Part shown: piece after piece, positions 10,022 through 58,422 of the stretch
Layout of the letters: each line of letters begins with the position of its first letter
Numbering within the stretch: the stretch's first letter is position 1
NCBI GenBank assembly: GCA_964413705.1
Contig: CAYPSK010000001.1
Span: 1 to 62,360, forward strand
DNA from: Candidatus Woesearchaeota archaeon
GTDB taxonomy: Archaea > Nanobdellota > Nanobdellia > Pacearchaeales > UBA284
Direction: 5' to 3'
DNA length: 62,360 bases
Position numbers and translations under genes: made by a program
Notes under the pieces: model-generated
What the model saw: the letters and a program-made list of their open reading frames with translations, nothing else
Databases searched by the model: none
What the model was told of the DNA's origin: nothing

Positions 10022-10867
10022 TCAAGAACTTGCTTCAATCATGTCCTCGTTCTCAAGAATTACTTCTGGCTTGCCTTGATACAATTGAATTTTTCCCTTA
10101 ACCCTTACCAATTTATTTGCATATATCTCTGGATCATTGAACTTCTTTAAATCAGACTTAAAAATGACTGCAGTAAAACATGAATTTGGATAGGGCTTTT
10201 CAAAATTAATGAAAGTTGTTGAACTTGAGCTTTTATAGACATCAACAATCTTGCCCTGAATAATTTTTTCCTGCCCAATAAAATTGCCTGCATCACAAGC
10301 CAGGATAACATCTCTCTCATTTCCAATTAATCCTGTCCAAGCCCCTTCATTCTGGATATTGCTCCCAGGCAGCCAAGTTGAATTTTCCCATTTGCAACCG
10401 ATTCTATTTTCTCTTGCAAAATTTTCAGCACCAATAAAATCCCCTTGATACTTATCTTCTTCATTAGTCCTTGCAACAACAAATCCCTCTTGGACAAGCT
10501 TTAAGTTGATATTCTCTCCATTAAAAAGAACATATCTCAAATACCGGTCATAAATATCTTTGTCTTCTTTGCCTTGTTCAAGATAAACTTCTTTTCCAAG
10601 AACAAGCTCTTCAAGCTTTTCCTTGGCAGCAAAATAACAAGGATATCCTTTTTCATCAGCATCCATTCCAAGCATCCTCACACTCTCGCCGCCTGCAATG
10701 AATGTGTCTCCATCAATTATCTTTGTTACAGTCTTCATCTCCCTAATACCCTGGGTTGTTCCACTAGTCATGCTCCTTAATAACGCCCCATGATTATAAG
10801 TCAAGAAAAAGATAATTATCAAAACCAATAAAACTCCGAAAATACTCAAGATTTTCCCTTTTTTCAT
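10022..10867 (-). CDS. Secreted/membrane-anchored thermonuclease (SNase-like) with C-terminal OB-like domain
   Basis: N-terminal TM/signal (ILSIFGVLLVLIIIFF). SNase motif VTKIIDGDTFIAGGESVRMLGMDADEKG ... YDRYLRYV. Confidence 0.7.
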   Translation of the reverse strand: MKKGKILSIFGVLLVLIIIFFLTYNHGALLRSMTSGTTQGIREMKTVTKIIDGDTFIAGGESVRMLGMDADEKGYPCYFAAKEKLEELVLGKEVYLEQGKEDKDIYDRYLRYVLFNGENINLKLVQEGFVVARTNEEDKYQGDFIGAENFARENRIGCKWENSTWLPGSNIQNEGAWTGLIGNERDVILACDAGNFIGQEKIIQGKIVDVYKSSSSTTFINFEKPYPNSCFTAVIFKSDLKKFNDPEIYANKLVRVKGKIQLYQGKPEVILENEDMIEASS

Positions 10868-10961
10868 ATAGTTAAGGGTAAAAATACTATTTTAATTTAA
10901 CTATTCTAAAACATACTTTTTTGTTCACAAAGCTTTTTATATGCCCATTATTTAGAAAATC

Positions 10962-11084
10962 ATGGCAAAAAAAGTAAAGAAAAAAGAGGCATATGAAAAA
11001 ATAGAGGCTGAAATCAATAAAGATTTCAATCTTGAAACACCAGAAGAAAATCTTGAAAACAAAGATTTAAGATACATTGGATAA
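10962..11084 (+). CDS. Possible 40-aa charged micro-protein (MAKKVKKKEAYEKIEAEINKDF...)
   Basis: An ATG ORF in an otherwise empty 300-nt spacer. There is no homology evidence, so it could be non-coding. Confidence 0.2.
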   Translation: MAKKVKKKEAYEKIEAEINKDFNLETPEENLENKDLRYIG

Positions 11085-11108
11085 AATTTGCAAAACCTTT
11101 TTAAAAAT

Positions 11109-11140
11109 AAAGCGCATAATTACTGATTAAGGCGCATAAA
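11109..11140 (+). repeat. Bipartite GCGCA motif, copy a (AAAGCGCATAATTACTGATTAAGGCGCATAAA)
   Basis: Two GCGCA cores exactly 20 nt apart with an AATTACT centre, 27 nt upstream of the HIT gene ATG. Confidence 0.7.
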
Positions 11141-11166
11141 AAATTTTAATTCAATTATAAATCAAA

Positions 11167-11604
11167 ATGTCAGATAAAAAAGATTGCATTTTCTGCAAGA
11201 TTATCAAAGGAGAAATTCCTTGTTATAAAGTATATGAAGATGAAGATTTCTTTGCCATGCTAGACATTCATCCAGTAAACCCCGGCCATCTTCTTTTGAT
11301 GCCAAAAAAACATTCAGATACTTTTCTTGAAACAGATGACAAAATAATTGAAAAAATTTTTGTGGTTGCTAAAAAATTAGCAGAATCAATTTCAAGGCCC
11401 CTAAAAACAAATGATTTCAGCTTCACAATCAATAATGGAGAACTTGCCGGGCAGATTGTCCAACATCTCCATATACATATTATCCCTAGATTCAAAGAAG
11501 ATAATTTTATAAATTGGCCAAACAAAGCCCTTTCAGATGAAGAGATGAAAAAGATTACAGAGAAGATAAAGAATTCCTTAAAAGAAAAAACAACCCAGTT
11601 CTAA
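11167..11604 (+). CDS. HIT-family (histidine triad) nucleotide hydrolase/transferase
   Basis: CIFCKII N-terminus and the histidine triad HLHIHIIPR. Confidence 0.85.
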   Translation: MSDKKDCIFCKIIKGEIPCYKVYEDEDFFAMLDIHPVNPGHLLLMPKKHSDTFLETDDKIIEKIFVVAKKLAESISRPLKTNDFSFTINNGELAGQIVQHLHIHIIPRFKEDNFINWPNKALSDEEMKKITEKIKNSLKEKTTQF

Positions 11605-41064: not shown

Positions 41065-41128
41065 TTCTTAAATATCATAACCTAAAAGTATAAATATAAT
41101 TTTTTTCTATATTCTTTTATAACCCCCT

Positions 41129-41222
41129 GCCCAGATGGGACAAAGGTACTCCGACGGTCTCGAAAGAATCCAAGATAACCGTTTTCCGCAAGGATATCCA
41201 GGTTCGATTCCTGGTCTGGGCG
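41129..41222 (+). tRNA. tRNA-Ser (anticodon CGA) with a putative 12-nt anticodon-loop intron
   Basis: Acceptor GCCCAGA/TCTGGGC with discriminator G. Long variable arm (TCC-GCAA-GGA), T arm CCAGG-TTCGATT-CCTGG and anticodon stem ACGGT/ACCGT. That stem encloses 19 nt, which is a 7-nt loop CTCGAA.A plus about 12 nt inserted after position 37. Confidence 0.7.
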
Positions 41223-41224
41223 TT

Positions 41225-53784: not shown

Positions 53785-54273
53785 ATGAAAAAAGAGGACG
53801 AAGAAAACAATTCTCCATTTGCAAGAGAAAGTGAAACACATGAAAGAATTCATTCTCATCTTAAAGCACATCCAAGAGGATTAACAACACAAGAAATAGA
53901 ACAGCAAACAGGAATTTCTAGAAAAGCAGTTGAAAAACATCTTCAAATGCTTTTATTTTCTAATGATATTTATATGAAACAACTTGGAAGTACAAGGGTT
54001 TATTATCCAAATCATAGGTATCATCATATAGATTTTAAATATTTTGATGTTGGCAAAAAAAGATTTTATATAGATTTAATTGAAAATGATTATGGTAAGT
54101 CTGTTCTTGTACAGCAAAAAATCAAGGAAAAAGACAAATGGATTACAAAAGGAAGTATCTTTATTCCAATAAATGCAACACAACAATTCTTAAAAAGCTT
54201 TAGCGATATAATAAACTCTAAGAGATTAAAAGATGAAATTAAAAAGGAGAAAGAAAATGGGAACAGAACATAA
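53785..54273 (+). CDS. Winged-helix protein upstream of the methyltransferase (possible R-M controller or regulator)
   Basis: IHSHLKAHPRGLTTQEIEQQTGISRKAVEKHLQMLLFSNDIYMKQLGSTRVYY is a wHTH pattern. Its 3' end overlaps the methyltransferase start. Confidence 0.5.
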   Translation: MKKEDEENNSPFARESETHERIHSHLKAHPRGLTTQEIEQQTGISRKAVEKHLQMLLFSNDIYMKQLGSTRVYYPNHRYHHIDFKYFDVGKKRFYIDLIENDYGKSVLVQQKIKEKDKWITKGSIFIPINATQQFLKSFSDIINSKRLKDEIKKEKENGNRT

Positions 54274-55072
54274 AATAATCTTAGGTGATGCTCTAAAAGT
54301 GTTAAAGAAAATTCCAGATAATTCTGTTGATCTGGTGTTTGCTGATCCACCTTACAACATGTCTAAGAAAAAAGGACTTGGTTGGGCTTATAGCAAACAT
54401 GTAACTATGCAGCAAGAATGGGATATGTTCTCTAAAGATGACTTTTTTAAGTTCAATAAAGAATGGATAGCAGAATGTTTAAGAGTTTTGAAACATGGTG
54501 GCAGTTTATGGATTTCTGGCAGTTTTCACAATATTTATCAAATTGGTTTTATCCTCCAACAACTACACCCAGAAATTAAAATAAATAATAGCATTGTTTG
54601 GTTTAAACCAAATGCTCAACCCAACATAACCTGCAGATTTTTTACAGAAAGTACAGAGCATTTAATTTGGGCTACAAAGAATGGAGATAAGAAGAAATGG
54701 AAATTTAATTATCAATTTACTAAAGATCATATTTTAGATAACATAAATCCAGAAGGGAAACAAACTAGGAATGTTTGGAGTATTCCCCTAACTCCTAAAA
54801 ATGAGAAATGGGCAGGAGCACATCCAACACAAAAACCATTTGAATTATTAAGACGAATCATTCTAAGTTCTACAGATGAAGGTGATACGGTTCTTGATCC
54901 TTTTGTAGGTTCTGGCACAACATCAGTAGTTGCTAAGTATTATGGCAGAAATTCAATAGGGATCGAAGTAGATAAAAAATATCAAGATATAATCAAAAAA
55001 AGATTAGAAAAATCACAAAAAACTGCTTCTGGAGAAGAAGCAGAGGTTATCTTTGAGGATTTTAAAGATTAA
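54233..55072 (+). CDS. DNA methyltransferase, beta-class (N6-adenine or N4-cytosine; DPPY type)
   Basis: Motif IV LVFADPPYN is near the N-terminus and AdoMet motif I DPFVGSGTT is near the C-terminus, which is the circularly permuted beta order. The likely start is the ATG at 54257. Confidence 0.85.
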   Translation: MKLKRRKKMGTEHKIILGDALKVLKKIPDNSVDLVFADPPYNMSKKKGLGWAYSKHVTMQQEWDMFSKDDFFKFNKEWIAECLRVLKHGGSLWISGSFHNIYQIGFILQQLHPEIKINNSIVWFKPNAQPNITCRFFTESTEHLIWATKNGDKKKWKFNYQFTKDHILDNINPEGKQTRNVWSIPLTPKNEKWAGAHPTQKPFELLRRIILSSTDEGDTVLDPFVGSGTTSVVAKYYGRNSIGIEVDKKYQDIIKKRLEKSQKTASGEEAEVIFEDFKD

Positions 55073-55677
55073 TTCATATACCAAAGAGGTTTGAGATTAC
55101 TTTCACATTTTTTATGTTTTTTATTCTCTTTATAAGTATATTTTGTTATTGGTGGTTGCCCATTACATACACTCATACATAAATTATCTATCTCTTTAGG
55201 GTTATCAATAAATTCTCTAATCCAACCCTGAAAAAACAGATTGGCAGGTTCAAAATAACTTTCTTTATTATATGCATACTCTTGTTCAATAAGAAATAAT
55301 TGTGCCAAAACTCCAATAATAAGTAAATCATTAAGATAATGCTCAAACTTTTCTTTTGACAGTTTAGCAAGTTCCTTTTCTGGGTTCGATCCATAAAAAA
55401 TATTGTCAAAAGCAAGTAATAAGTCTCTCTTTAAATCTTGTCTGCTTCTAACTCGGAGGTTTAAGTCAAGCATAACTCTAAGGTGATTTGGTCTAAATTC
55501 TCTTTCACCTTCTTTTAGCCATACCTGAAAATTCTTGTTTATATCATATCCTTTAAATCTTGGTGAAAGTATTGATGGCCTAAATAGCTGAACTTCTATG
55601 CCCTCTTTCTTAAATATAGTTTCCTTTTTATCAAAAGGCAGGTTTATCACGATCTTAAGCATTTCTGATTTAAGCAT
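55069..55677 (-). CDS. Hypothetical protein; positional candidate for the cognate restriction endonuclease
   Basis: Convergent with the methyltransferase, with a 4-nt overlap of the 3' ends. 202 aa. No catalytic motif could be assigned with confidence. Confidence 0.35.
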   Translation of the reverse strand: MLKSEMLKIVINLPFDKKETIFKKEGIEVQLFRPSILSPRFKGYDINKNFQVWLKEGEREFRPNHLRVMLDLNLRVRSRQDLKRDLLLAFDNIFYGSNPEKELAKLSKEKFEHYLNDLLIIGVLAQLFLIEQEYAYNKESYFEPANLFFQGWIREFIDNPKEIDNLCMSVCNGQPPITKYTYKENKKHKKCESNLKPLWYMN

Positions 55678-55713: not shown

Positions 55714-55905
55714 TTGCCTAGTCTCTTCATGGCAATAATGGGTAGAACCAAAAGAGCAAATGCGCAGAGATGGAATGCTATTAATAAGCAAAGAGAAAAA
55801 GAAAATGATTGTGAACCTAAAAAAGAAGAAAAAAAGATTTCTAAAGGGGAAATGGGGAAATTAATTCAAATAATAAGGGAAGCGGCAGCAAAAAAGTCTG
55901 ATTAG
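55714..55905 (+). CDS. Possible small basic protein
   Basis: A 63-aa Lys/Arg/Glu-rich ORF. Its coding status is uncertain. Confidence 0.25.
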   Translation: MPSLFMAIMGRTKRANAQRWNAINKQREKENDCEPKKEEKKISKGEMGKLIQIIREAAAKKSD

Positions 55906-56064
55906 CCATTTTTCGCCCCCTCACACCACGCGCAACCCTTCGCAGGACACTCCCCATTCAAAAGATCTAGGGCCTCTTTCCAAACTCGCTCTACTATCTT
56001 TACATTGACTTCCATCTTAATAAGATTTGTATTGAATAAGACTTCTCCTGTCTCTAAAACTCCT
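55902..56064 (-). pseudogene. Orphan 3' end (53 codons + stop) of a Cas4-like nuclease gene
   Basis: The minus frame reads GVLETGEVLFNTNLIKMEVNVKIVERVWKEALDLLNGECPAKGCAWCEGAKNG-stop. This is colinear with the C-terminus of 57049..57768. Nucleotide identity is about 85% by eye over about 150 nt. No upstream part of the gene is present. Confidence 0.65.
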
Positions 56065-56419
56065 AGTTTTTATTCTTTTCTAAATCTTTTTTTATTTTTT
56101 GGATCTTTTCTTTTAAGTCCGGAAGATCTTTTTTGATAATATTCCAAACTATGTTCAAATCGACTCCAAAATAATGGTGAATCATTTTATCCCTTGTTCC
56201 TACAATCTCTTTCCAAGGTATTGAAGAATATTTTTCTTTTAAATTATCTGAAATATTTTTTATTGCTTCACCTATAATCTCTATCTCTCTTACAATTGCA
56301 CTCTGTTTCATCCTATTTGAAATTAATTCTTCCTTGTCCATATTTTTAGAAAATTCATCTATTGCATTGATACTTTCTAAAATATGTTTAATAAATATTA
56401 CATCTTCTTTATTATTCAT
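56063..56419 (-). CDS. hepT: HEPN (DUF86) toxin of a HEPN-MNT module
   Basis: WKEIVGTRDKMIHHYFGVD carries the Rx4H HEPN motif. 118 aa. 4-nt overlap with the upstream MNT gene. Confidence 0.8.
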   Translation of the reverse strand: MNNKEDVIFIKHILESINAIDEFSKNMDKEELISNRMKQSAIVREIEIIGEAIKNISDNLKEKYSSIPWKEIVGTRDKMIHHYFGVDLNIVWNIIKKDLPDLKEKIQKIKKDLEKNKN

Positions 56420-56889
56420 ATTATCCTCACTTCCTGACTTAAAATCTTATCTTTAAGATAAGGGCTTATTCCATTATAGCTTACTAAATCTACTTTTCTT
56501 TTTAATGCTTTTTCAAGTTCAAATTGAACTCCAACAAACTGCAAACCCATCCCCTTAGGGGGCTGTATTAAAATATCAATATCACTATTTTTTTTCTGTT
56601 CTCCCTTTACGTAACTTCCAAATATTCCTGCTTTTTTTATTTTATTTTTTTTTAAAATTTTAATTATTTTCGGTTTTATTTTTTCTATGACACTTTTCTT
56701 TGCATCTTTCTTTAATTTATTTTTTAGAAGCACTTTATCTGCTTTTTTTTCTTTTTCAGCTAATTCCTTATCAAACAAGTCAACACCCAAATATTTTCTT
56801 TTTTTTGAAACTTTATTTCCTTTTCTAACAGAGATAACTCTATAATAATATTTTTTTTTATTTCTCTTCTGTATTTCAGTATATACCAT
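56416..56889 (-). CDS. mntA: Minimal nucleotidyltransferase (MNT) antitoxin with a Lys-rich N-terminal extension
   Basis: GIFGSYVKGEQKKNSDIDILI matches GSx(n)SDxD of the pol-beta-type NTase. An extra basic segment of about 70 aa lies at the N-terminus (KKKYYYRVISVRKGNKVSKKRKYLG). Confidence 0.8.
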   Translation of the reverse strand: MVYTEIQKRNKKKYYYRVISVRKGNKVSKKRKYLGVDLFDKELAEKEKKADKVLLKNKLKKDAKKSVIEKIKPKIIKILKKNKIKKAGIFGSYVKGEQKKNSDIDILIQPPKGMGLQFVGVQFELEKALKRKVDLVSYNGISPYLKDKILSQEVRII

Positions 56890-57048
56890 GTTGTGTGTAT
56901 GTCTACATTGTTTATAAATCTTTCTGTAGACATATAAGCGAAGGGCATAAAAAATAGTTTGCTATATTATTTTAATCAATTATGAAAAATTGTGAAGAAA
57001 TAACTACTATTCTTCCTCTTTCTCCTCCTTAAACTCCTCCCAAACTTT

Positions 57049-57768
57049 TTATTTTTCTCCTTTTCCTTCACACCACTCACACCCCTTCTTAGGACACTCT
57101 CCATTCAAAAGCTCAAGGGCCTCTTTCCAAACCTTTTCTACTATTTTTATATTGACTTCCATCTTAATGAGATTTGTATTGAACAAGACTTCCCCTGTCT
57201 CTAAAACCTCTTTTGGATGATAGAATAATAGGAAAAAATGATCCCCTGTTTCAAATCCGTTTTTTTGTAATAAGAAATTATAGATATTCTGCTGCAACCT
57301 ATAGTGCTCTGCAGTATCTTCTTTTAATGGAAAGCCCCGAGTCTTATAATCTAAAACAAATAACTTGTTTCCATCAACTAATATATTATCAACAGCCCCA
57401 TGCAAAACATTTTCTTGTTCATCTGTCCAGGTAATTCCCTTAAAATTATTTCTCCATTTATCTAATAACTCTTTGTTGTTGAATAACTTCATGTTCTTGC
57501 AATGAACATGCTCTCTGATTTCAGGAGGCAAAGTCCCTTGTTCAGCAAACTTGTCAAAATGTTTTTTTAAAACTCCATCCATGCCACTTGGAAGACTTGG
57601 AAAAATCCCTAAAGGTCTTTTCCAAACTTCATGTTGTGTAAGCCAGAAACATCTTGGGCACTCTTTCATCAAGTTTAGTGTGCTTGGGGATAATTTGTAT
57701 GTTTGTGGCATTTTGTATAAAAAGGCTAGAGAATTGGATGTTTTAAGAGTTTCTATTCTAAGAACCAC
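57049..57768 (-). CDS. Cas4/RecB-like PD-(D/E)XK nuclease with Cys cluster, stand-alone
   Basis: An N-terminal Cys (ECPRCFW). Nuclease motifs GAVDNILVD...LFVLDYKTRG (D...D/ExK) and QQNIYNFLL (QhxxY). The C-terminal cluster is CPKKGCEWC. The likely start is MPQTYK at 57711. Confidence 0.7.
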   Translation of the reverse strand: MVLRIETLKTSNSLAFLYKMPQTYKLSPSTLNLMKECPRCFWLTQHEVWKRPLGIFPSLPSGMDGVLKKHFDKFAEQGTLPPEIREHVHCKNMKLFNNKELLDKWRNNFKGITWTDEQENVLHGAVDNILVDGNKLFVLDYKTRGFPLKEDTAEHYRLQQNIYNFLLQKNGFETGDHFFLLFYHPKEVLETGEVLFNTNLIKMEVNIKIVEKVWKEALELLNGECPKKGCEWCEGKGEK

Positions 57769-57772
57769 AGAA

Positions 57773-58129
57773 CTAATTGTAGACTAATACTTCTTGTCTG
57801 GGTGTTTTATGCCCCAAGTCCAAAGTAAGAGGGATTTGAACATTGACCTCTTTATCTTCTTTCTTGAATGTTATCATAAGTAAAACATAAACATGATTGG
57901 TTTTATAGTTTACAGACATTTTCATGCTTTTAATGTTCTTCAAGATGTTTTTGTCTATTCCTAAGTTCTCACTCGCATCCATAATCTCTATACCACAAAC
58001 AAGATTTTCATGATTTACATCTAAAACAAAATCCCCTATATCTATAGAAGCTTTTACTTTCTCCTCATTCGATATAAAGAGTATATCGCTATTTTCATCG
58101 TAATCTATTGTTTTAATTGGTTTTGCCAT
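57773..58129 (-). CDS. DUF2283-like protein (putative antitoxin)
   Basis: The N-terminus IDYDENSDILFISNEE... is the characteristic DUF2283 (YuzE-like) opening. It overlaps the upstream DUF4258-like gene by 25 nt. Confidence 0.55.
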   Translation of the reverse strand: MAKPIKTIDYDENSDILFISNEEKVKASIDIGDFVLDVNHENLVCGIEIMDASENLGIDKNILKNIKSMKMSVNYKTNHVYVLLMITFKKEDKEVNVQIPLTLDLGHKTPRQEVLVYN

Positions 58130-58422
58130 TTTCTATTGCTATTCCAAGCACTTATAACTTTTAAACCTTTTGGATTTATTTCAATGATAATTTCACTAAT
58201 GATAATCAAAGAGTATTTTTTGCTCATCTTAAACCATAGCTTAAACATATCTTTTTCTTTTCCTCTTTCAATTTTTTCTAATTTATTAGTTTGAGATAGA
58301 AAACTTCGAATCATGCTTTCATTTATGGGTCTTTCTTTAGTCCTTTTATAAAAATGAGGATCAAAAAGAACATCATTTTGATTTAATTCTTCAAGAAAAC
58401 TTTTAACCTCATTTAATTCCAT
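58105..58422 (-). CDS. DUF4258-like protein (putative toxin)
   Basis: 105 aa. FDPHFYKRTKERPINESMIRSFL resembles the H...R..(E/R)R.I opening of DUF4258. It is paired with a DUF2283-like gene, as in predicted TA modules. Confidence 0.45.
   Translation of the reverse strand: MELNEVKSFLEELNQNDVLFDPHFYKRTKERPINESMIRSFLSQTNKLEKIERGKEKDMFKLWFKMSKKYSLIIISEIIIEINPKGLKVISAWNSNRKWQNQLKQ

Follow-up and report, generated by a model that had tools for sequence, protein, structure and literature searches.

A toxin-antitoxin cassette between two diverged ends of one nuclease gene in a woesearchaeal genome: a possible scar of gene-end displacement

Introduction

The movement of toxin-antitoxin (TA) pairs and other small defence cassettes without transposases or integrases is poorly understood, most of all in the uncultured DPANN archaea. 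How such a cassette can come to lie between two versions of the same gene end is the question raised by contig CAYPSK010000001.1 of assembly GCA_964413705.1 (Candidatus Woesearchaeota archaeon), of which 62,360 nt were analysed, hereafter the window. Here a predicted mntA-hepT TA pair is bracketed by two diverged copies of the 3′ end of a PD-(D/E)XK nuclease gene. The original prediction, made by eye from the sequence, took this layout for the footprint of a cassette insertion with replacement of the target end, or of a duplication followed by replacement, and suggested that TA modules of this lineage move by a mechanism that copies or targets gene 3′ ends. The reading that we favour, with a rough probability of 45%, is that the locus is a gene-end displacement scar, left by one-ended, homology-anchored host recombination which needed no dedicated mobility enzyme.

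The duplicated nuclease end

Positions 55918-56060 and 57065-57207 align without gaps over 143 nt at 87% identity, and a gapped alignment of 55908-56060 with 57051-57207 covers 157 nt at 85.4% identity with a BLAST E value of 2.9e-45, far beyond what AT-rich DNA (the window has a GC content of about 33%) yields by chance. No other repeat in the 62 kb exceeds 47 nt. The diverged direct repeat of about 150 nt described in the original prediction is thereby established, and the details given with it hold as well. The right copy is the true 3′ end of the nuclease open reading frame (ORF; 57049-57768). The left copy keeps an open frame of 53 codons and a stop, which translates as GVLETGEVLFNTNLIKMEVNVKIVERVWKEALDLLNGECPAKGCAWCEGAKNG*; it has neither a start codon nor a 5′ part, and an in-frame stop lies three codons upstream. 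It begins exactly at the end of the HEPN gene, the hepT stop TAG (56065-56063) directly abutting the first homologous base. Only mntA and hepT, both recognised by Pfam, and their promoter lie between the two copies.

The duplicated segment encodes the three C-terminal cysteines of the nuclease, so that an insertion here would break the gene unless the lost end were replaced. No significant relic of the gene end (KVW...) was found in the 107-nt spacer, including its 33-nt part at the nuclease stop (P=0.32). That the left fragment might be translated through a frameshift in hepT was ruled out, because a stop is met three codons upstream in that frame and there is no slippery site.

Several short contigs (L011, L012, L014 and L154) end inside or beside the repeat, as repeats break assemblies, and this could point to an assembly chimera; alternatively, the likeness might be a chance one in AT-rich DNA. 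The E value speaks against chance. Six contigs (L009-L014) from six samples match the region at 99.3-100%, and these were assembled independently by the ENA (ERZ27248920, ERZ27248895, ERZ27248937, ERZ27248953) and JGI (3300028299, 3300028191) pipelines. Both copies are covered by L009 and L010, which belong to different samples; L013 crosses the junction of hepT and the left copy, and the remaining three end in or near a repeat copy. The 19 sites at which the copies differ mean, in addition, that they cannot be collapsed reads of one locus. Since six independent metagenome assemblies reproduce the layout, it is not the mis-assembly against which the original prediction had cautioned, and both chimera and chance can be set aside almost entirely.

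Divergence of the two ends

Over 48 aligned codons the copies differ at 19 nucleotides and five amino acids, 13 of the 19 differences falling at third positions. The NG86 method gives 12.5 synonymous and 6.5 nonsynonymous differences and a ratio of nonsynonymous to synonymous divergence (dN/dS) of 0.09, in agreement with the earlier impression that the changes are mostly synonymous or conservative. When at least 10 of the 19 differences were simulated as random hits on a dead fragment, the probability of five or fewer amino acid changes together with an open frame was at most 0.027; with at least 13 such hits it was about 0.001. The synonymous bias and the simulation reject a simple in-place duplication followed by decay. 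The copies are 85-87% identical to each other, and each is 83-88% identical to the orthologues of other species. Judged by this substitution pattern, the two ends are shown to have diverged mostly as parts of working genes, under purifying selection, in different lineages; divergence so biased towards synonymous sites means that at least one end came from another lineage. The insertion footprint first proposed is supported in that a working end and a displaced end bracket the cargo, and the foreign origin of at least one of them fits a replacement of the target end.

Two diverged copies that were both shaped by selection would also be explained if two tandem paralogous nuclease genes had once stood here and the downstream one had been mostly replaced by the cassette. 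Tandem nuclease genes occur in 0 of the 80 related species representatives, however, and the closest relatives (L001 and L005) carry a single copy. The same kind of bracket is moreover found at unrelated genes, as described below, and former tandem paralogues are for these reasons a very improbable source of the repeat.

Exchange between species is directly visible close by. In a tract of 410 nt, which covers the DUF2283 gene next to the 5′ side of the nuclease gene, the window shows no difference from L001. L001 represents another species of the same samples, and its nuclease gene is only 82.6% identical in DNA. L009 and L010, which belong to the window's own population, differ from the window at 20 sites within this tract; outside it the window is the same as L009, while L001 differs at 39 of 278 sites. 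By these identities the tract stems from a recent conversion between species. It lies about 600 bp from the junction, and its identity with the co-occurring L001 shows that interspecies homologous recombination is active at the locus.

The mntA-hepT cassette and its promoter

The gene mntA lies immediately upstream of hepT in one operon, the two overlapping by 4 nt, and the Pfam matches of both products are above cut-off. The motif GS-x10-DxD is present in MntA as GSYVKGEQKKNSDID, and Rx4HxY, the active-site and AMPylation motif of the HEPN toxin, in HepT as RDKMIHHY. Scores against the NCBIfam equivalogs NF047751 and NF047752 were below the cut-offs of 60 bits (HepT_toxin 51, MntA_antitoxin 53). 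On these grounds the pair is a predicted divergent archaeal subfamily of the type VII TA systems. A search with mntA returned 1764 homologues. MntA also bears an N-terminal extension of about 70 residues (56680-56889; MVYTEIQKRNKKKYYYRV...KRKYLG) without a Pfam match, and a similar N-terminus is found on a Fic-motif protein (L117, 5990-6913). The extension could be a DNA-binding part that reads the palindromic operator.

Upstream of mntA two inverted arms of 9 nt, ATGTCTACA (56899-56907) and TGTAGACAT (56925-56933), stand around a TATA box, TTTATAAA (56911-56918), so that the inverted repeat noticed in this region by the original prediction is real. Across about 45 related loci, conservation starts abruptly some 52 nt upstream of the mntA ATG and ends at the hepT stop, and the surroundings, which include tRNA 3′ ends and the stop codon of a prolyl-tRNA synthetase gene, are unrelated. 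Conservation of the inverted repeat in so many unrelated contexts identifies it as the cassette's own promoter/operator and rules it out as an insertion signal. No conserved terminal motif was found downstream of hepT.

The closest relative of the cassette, on L155, has an MntA 85% identical to that of the window. The DNA common to both is limited to window positions 57015-56067 (82.5% identity) and is set in an unrelated context; these limits indicate that the imported block extends from a point 33 nt past the nuclease stop to the stop of hepT. Upstream of the block in L155 only a 10-nt match to the nuclease end was found (P=0.26), and no nuclease gene stands beside other mntA-hepT cassettes in 58 metagenome loci or 7 further loci.

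As to where else such cassettes lie, the promoter begins beside, or within about 35 nt of, an apparent tRNA 3′ end (judged by eye) in L105 and L128. In L107, L113, L118 and L139 mntA-hepT directly follows the stop codon of the prolyl-tRNA synthetase gene. These lineages differ by up to 31% in DNA, and occupation of the same site in four diverged lineages indicates an old, vertically inherited insertion.

Recurrence of the bracketed layout

The original prediction had raised the question of whether other HEPN-MNT pairs are flanked by duplicated gene ends. Such brackets are present in other Nanoarchaeota too. Flanks were compared at 40 mntA-hepT loci, or 38 after removal of duplicates of one locus, and a bracketing repeat was found at about four of the 38 cassettes, those of the window, L118, L131 and L141; such repeat pairs number about 13 per Mb in the background, so that by a rough estimate about 0.1 would be expected by chance. 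L141 has a 48-nt repeat directly at both cassette ends. At L117 a further bracketing repeat occurs, and its overlap with a gene end is not established.

In L118 the repeat is 154 nt long (93% identity); beginning at the stop of hepT, it takes in the 3′ end of a 37-aa gene together with the region behind that gene. The syntenic L113, L107 and L139 hold the cassette in the same place and lack the extra copy, from which it follows that L118 gained the copy, and a 16-nt filler with it, in a lineage that already had the cassette. The nuclease gene itself recurs in such layouts: in L065 its 5′ end and promoter are duplicated around a DUF2283/DUF5678 cassette, with 11 coding differences between the copies (11 synonymous, 0 non-synonymous), and in L045 its 5′ end, again with the promoter, is duplicated around an SNase gene. 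In L070, where overlap with the gene end is not established, repeats just downstream of the nuclease gene surround DUF2283 and MazE/ParE-like pairs. Other bracketed cargo comprises an AAA_14 ATPase, an MNT gene, a C5 methylase, a BglII-like endonuclease and a patatin. The junctions at the nuclease gene vary, lying at -53 codons in the window, at +44 nt in L070 and at two different 5′ positions in L065 and L045. No recombinase was found in any bracketed case, L118 and L131 likewise having no integrase between the repeats.

Several of these features can be accommodated if the target is duplicated in situ, over 50-300 nt, by staggered breaks or replicative template switching, and one copy is afterwards overwritten by a foreign allele. 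In L118 the copies have lineage-specific states in common, as well as 65 nt of non-coding DNA at 100% identity, the 45 nt upstream of the L065 gene differ at one site, the junctions are tight against the cassette ends, and short interspecies conversion tracts do occur at the window locus. Such a course would, on the other hand, take two events per case and would have to give duplications of 48 to about 285 nt, a range that no known transposition chemistry produces; at L118 the duplication was gained after the cassette was already in place, and the differences between the window copies are scattered along all 143 nt instead of being gathered in one tract. We consider duplication in situ rather unlikely.

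The most elaborate case is the 3.6-kb metagenome contig L131 (1-3594). Its three TA cassettes are MntA-HepT, a PIN_2 pair and a weak HicA/HicB pair, and behind every one of them stands a copy of the same 3′ end, that of a sigma-70-r4-like helix-turn-helix gene. The copies are 85-99% identical. Fragments A and C start at the same nucleotide, and a short relic or motif resembling a boundary site follows each stop codon, a borderline hint (P=0.057). Both features would suit site-specific integration, in which a larger integrative element, since decayed, or the small cassette itself, mobilised in trans by a tyrosine recombinase, would have entered at an attachment site inside the nuclease gene and brought a replacement 3′ end, and the TA pair would have survived decay by addiction. 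The product does have the layout of attL and attR with a reconstituted gene, the two left junctions in the window agree in a stretch of 14 nt (GTTTTAGAGACAGG), and tyrosine integrases are present in the lineage (L073). Against this, neither an integrase nor a remnant of one lies between the copies in any case, and the DNA between the repeats is the minimal cassette in several independent cases; the same block is found with no nuclease homology nearby (L155 and the 58 loci), fragment B of L131 starts elsewhere, events at the nuclease gene have their junctions in different places, and a second nuclease gene fragment is detectable at the protein level in only one of the 80 species representatives. 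Site-specific integration is thus an unlikely origin for the layout.

Further cases at gene ends (L118, L131, L141 and L065) speak for the proposal that cassettes of this lineage move in company with gene ends; the process is neither confined to TA pairs nor to 3′ ends, 5′ ends being involved in L065 and L045. A dedicated mechanism that targets gene ends is made less likely by the varying junctions, the lack of a recombinase in the bracketed cases and the late duplication at L118.

Origin of the layout

Non-TA cargo, 5′ ends, varying junctions, the missing recombinase and the history of L118 together favour general homology-anchored recombination over dedicated gene-end targeting. According to the favoured reading, donor DNA would have carried the compact, self-promoted mntA-hepT block (about 57015-56063) beside a nuclease 3′ end and would have reached a genome in which no cassette adjoined the nuclease gene. 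On one side, homologous recombination within the conserved nuclease gene would have provided the anchor; on the other, at the hepT stop, non-homologous joining would have taken place 53 codons short of the resident gene's end. Alternatively, a circular molecule made of gene end and cassette could have given the same product by a single homologous crossover. The gene would thereby keep a complete end with its three Fe-S cysteines, the other end would be pushed downstream as a dead fragment, and homeologous direct repeats would flank the cassette on both sides. The route, whether one-ended or by single crossover, we infer from its product.

A block with sharp, context-independent ends (5′ edge at -52, 3′ edge at the hepT stop) agrees with such an origin. 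The extra copy and filler of L118 would be obtained if an empty and a filled allele were joined through one homologous and one illegitimate junction. Were the repeats to recombine and delete the cassette, TA addiction would select against the loss, and this selection would explain why TA pairs are common cargo.

A number of points weigh against one-ended recombination. Searches found no empty-site allele, donor genome or circular intermediate, and exact-protein look-ups with the 202-aa neighbour and the nuclease returned only the filled arrangement or short contigs; for L118 there was no empty allele either. Synonymous sites are saturated in comparison with the nearest relatives (pS about 0.6) and both copies are nearly equidistant from L001 and L005, so that neither can be named the native one. 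The junctions hug the minimal cassette within 0-33 nt (0 nt in the window, 16 and 0 in L118, about 10 in L141), which random one-ended recombination does not predict and which hints at defined cassette ends. The common start nucleotide of fragments A and C in L131 is what a site-specific event would leave. The duplications of L118 and L065, finally, are mosaic, with a near-identical non-coding part and a diverged coding part, and call for extra recombination steps.

A wider proposal can be built on these cases: in the Nanoarchaeota (DPANN), self-promoted TA and defence cassettes would travel with a host gene end, home by host recombination and build integron-like arrays such as L131, stabilised by addiction, and the whole would form a cassette system free of recombinases. 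We offer it tentatively and hold it to be doubtful.

Gene order and neighbouring genes

The features of the locus are collected in Table 1. Upstream of the nuclease gene on the minus strand are a 105-aa ORF (58422-58105) and the DUF2283 gene (58129-57773), and the nuclease gene is followed by mntA, hepT and the nuclease 3′-end fragment. Past the left copy come the convergent 63-aa ORF, which is called as a 58-aa gene on L154 and has no family match, and then an N6_N4 methylase gene with a 202-aa ORF. Homologues of the window proteins belong to the Nanoarchaeota, Woesearchaeota and Pacearchaeota.

Table 1. Features at and around the bracketed cassette, in positions of the window
Feature	Position	Strand	Basis or remark
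PD-(D/E)XK nuclease gene, complete	57049..57711	-	ORF open to GTG 57768; likely start ATG 57711
Right repeat copy, working last 53 codons and stop of the nuclease gene, with three C-terminal cysteines	57049..57210	-	Alignment, translation
Unique spacer, 33 nt, from nuclease stop to cassette block	57016..57048	-	Not repeated; not common to L155
Upstream DNA travelling with the cassette sub-lineage	56941..57015	-	Aligned in L155
Cassette promoter/operator with TATA box and inverted arms	56890..56940	-	Conserved in about 45 mntA loci
mntA, predicted antitoxin (nucleotidyltransferase)	56416..56889	-	Pfam Polbeta 9.3e-17, NTP_transf_2 1.2e-13
hepT, predicted toxin (HEPN RNase)	56063..56419	-	Pfam HepT-like 1.8e-31
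Left repeat copy, displaced nuclease 3′ fragment, 53 codons and stop	55902..56063	-	Alignment, translation
Convergent 63-aa ORF, flank beyond the duplication	55714..55905	+	Stop overlaps the left-copy stop
Tract of interspecies recombination at the DUF2283 gene, adjoining the nuclease gene upstream	57763..58172		Identity to L001

The nuclease matches Pfam PDDEXK_1 (4.7e-10), and its cysteines form an N-terminal CPRC and a C-terminal C-x4-C-x2-C. Its family is very conserved, and the search yielded 3580 homologues of about 215 aa and about 70% identity, named Nanoarchaeota PD-(D/E)XK nuclease; as homologues measure about 215-220 aa, ATG 57711 is the likely start. The name Cas4-like, under which the gene was first described, fits the cysteine pattern and fails against the NCBIfam cas4 model (TIGR00372), where the protein scores 24 bits, far under the cut-off of 65. 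From its motifs the product is accurately named a PD-(D/E)XK nuclease with Cas4-like cysteines, Cas4-like in cysteine pattern only. No cas genes are among the neighbours listed for the window and related loci, which are restriction-modification, TA and unrelated genes (CRISPR arrays were not searched for). A relative of solved structure was not found by sequence, and a search of a viral collection with the nuclease gave one match only.

An N6_N4 methylase gene often stands directly downstream of the nuclease gene, adjacent or overlapping in L018, L028 and L031 and within 300 nt in L019 and L053, and there may be a functional tie between the nuclease and DNA modification. The methylase of L045 (12443-13255), 1.8 kb downstream of the nuclease gene, is 79% identical to that of the window (54233-55072), whose methylase side is probably the native flank. 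In the window the methylase gene and the convergent 202-aa ORF, which has no family match, overlap at their ends (54233-55677) and resemble a type II restriction-modification pair whose endonuclease would be novel. In L073 (56-2917) the nuclease gene breaks off at residue 195, where a fusion joins it to a 5′-truncated HsdM methylase gene, after which a tyrosine integrase gene and a tRNA-Asp follow; this is either a deletion junction beside an integrated element or an assembly chimera.

The DUF2283 gene is itself a roaming cassette. Mostly paired with a partner of 105-118 aa, it is directly upstream of the nuclease gene in the window (57773-58422) and 3 kb upstream in L001 (4287-4936). In L065 (8605-8964) it is inside the 5′-end duplication with different neighbours, and in L070 the pair (10740-11427) is found just downstream of the nuclease gene.

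Elsewhere in the window there is a tRNA-Phe gene of 96 nt (41128-41223), a length that allows for an intron and is consistent with archaeal origin. Two repeat-bearing loci of other kinds were seen in the collection: in L146 (250-3710) a GC-rich segment of about 100 nt is present three times close to a reverse-transcriptase-like ORF, and L124 (2614-4598) has a tandem gene array with a common leader of about 200 nt.

Comparison with known systems

Prophage e14 and phage 21 integrate at icd with an element-borne replacement 3′ end. As in the window, a duplication of a gene 3′ end (about 150-165 nt) brackets the insert, the gene is left intact, a pseudo-end is left behind and the differences are mostly synonymous. 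These elements are prophages of 15-40 kb with their own integrase and a fixed core, whereas the present insert is of about 1 kb, has no integrase and is one of a set with varying junctions.

In Rhs, contact-dependent inhibition (CDI) and type VI secretion system (T6SS) effector loci, C-terminal displacement has been proposed to occur by homology-facilitated illegitimate recombination (Kirchberger 2017, PMC5361080; on these processes that paper cites Jackson 2009, de Vries & Wackernagel 2002 and Prudhomme 2002). There too a conserved gene part serves as anchor, a new 3′ end arrives with small genes and the old end is orphaned downstream; repeated events build arrays, with which L131 may be compared, and no dedicated recombinase is needed. 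A complete gene, imported genes and an orphaned end downstream are found together in the window and in L131, and ends from different lineages in the window and in L065. The Rhs and T6SS loci differ in that the new end is a different toxin tip with its immunity gene; in the window it is an equivalent, homeologous end of a housekeeping-type nuclease, the passenger is an unrelated self-promoted TA cassette, the host is a DPANN archaeon, and 5′ ends are involved too.

Integron gene cassettes, which are also known from archaeal integrons (Ghaly 2022, PMC9668308), are likewise small, often TA pairs, and set in tandem arrays split by a repeated sequence. The likeness of L131 to such arrays is superficial. 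Integrons use attC hairpins and IntI; here the repeat is the coding end of a host gene and the cassettes carry their own promoter. No integrase is among the genes listed for the bracketed loci, and that attC sites are absent follows from the repeats being coding 3′ ends.

The cassette itself resembles type VII HepT-MntA in the mntA-hepT order, the 4-nt overlap and the motifs Rx4HxY and GS-x10-DxD. It departs from that type in scoring under the NCBIfam cut-offs, in the MntA extension of about 70 aa and in the conserved palindromic operator. In type VII systems MntA polyadenylylates HepT and so neutralises it, and this would be the predicted activity of the window pair.

Taken by process, the closest known system would be the C-terminal displacement of Rhs and T6SS loci; taken by product, it would be e14 and phage 21 at icd. 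We found no prior description in the literature of TA cassettes bracketed by gene ends in archaea, and what is new is the DPANN host, the self-promoted type VII-like TA passenger, the equivalence of the replaced end and the involvement of 5′ ends. The locus and the related cases offer a concrete, testable footprint in the form of a sharp-ended cassette, homeologous gene-end brackets and directly visible interspecies tracts. In annotation, orphan gene-end fragments beside small cassettes would mark recent acquisitions. If the process is general, host recombination at conserved gene ends would be a major route to defence islands in streamlined archaeal genomes, and the archaeal counterpart of Rhs/T6SS C-terminal displacement.

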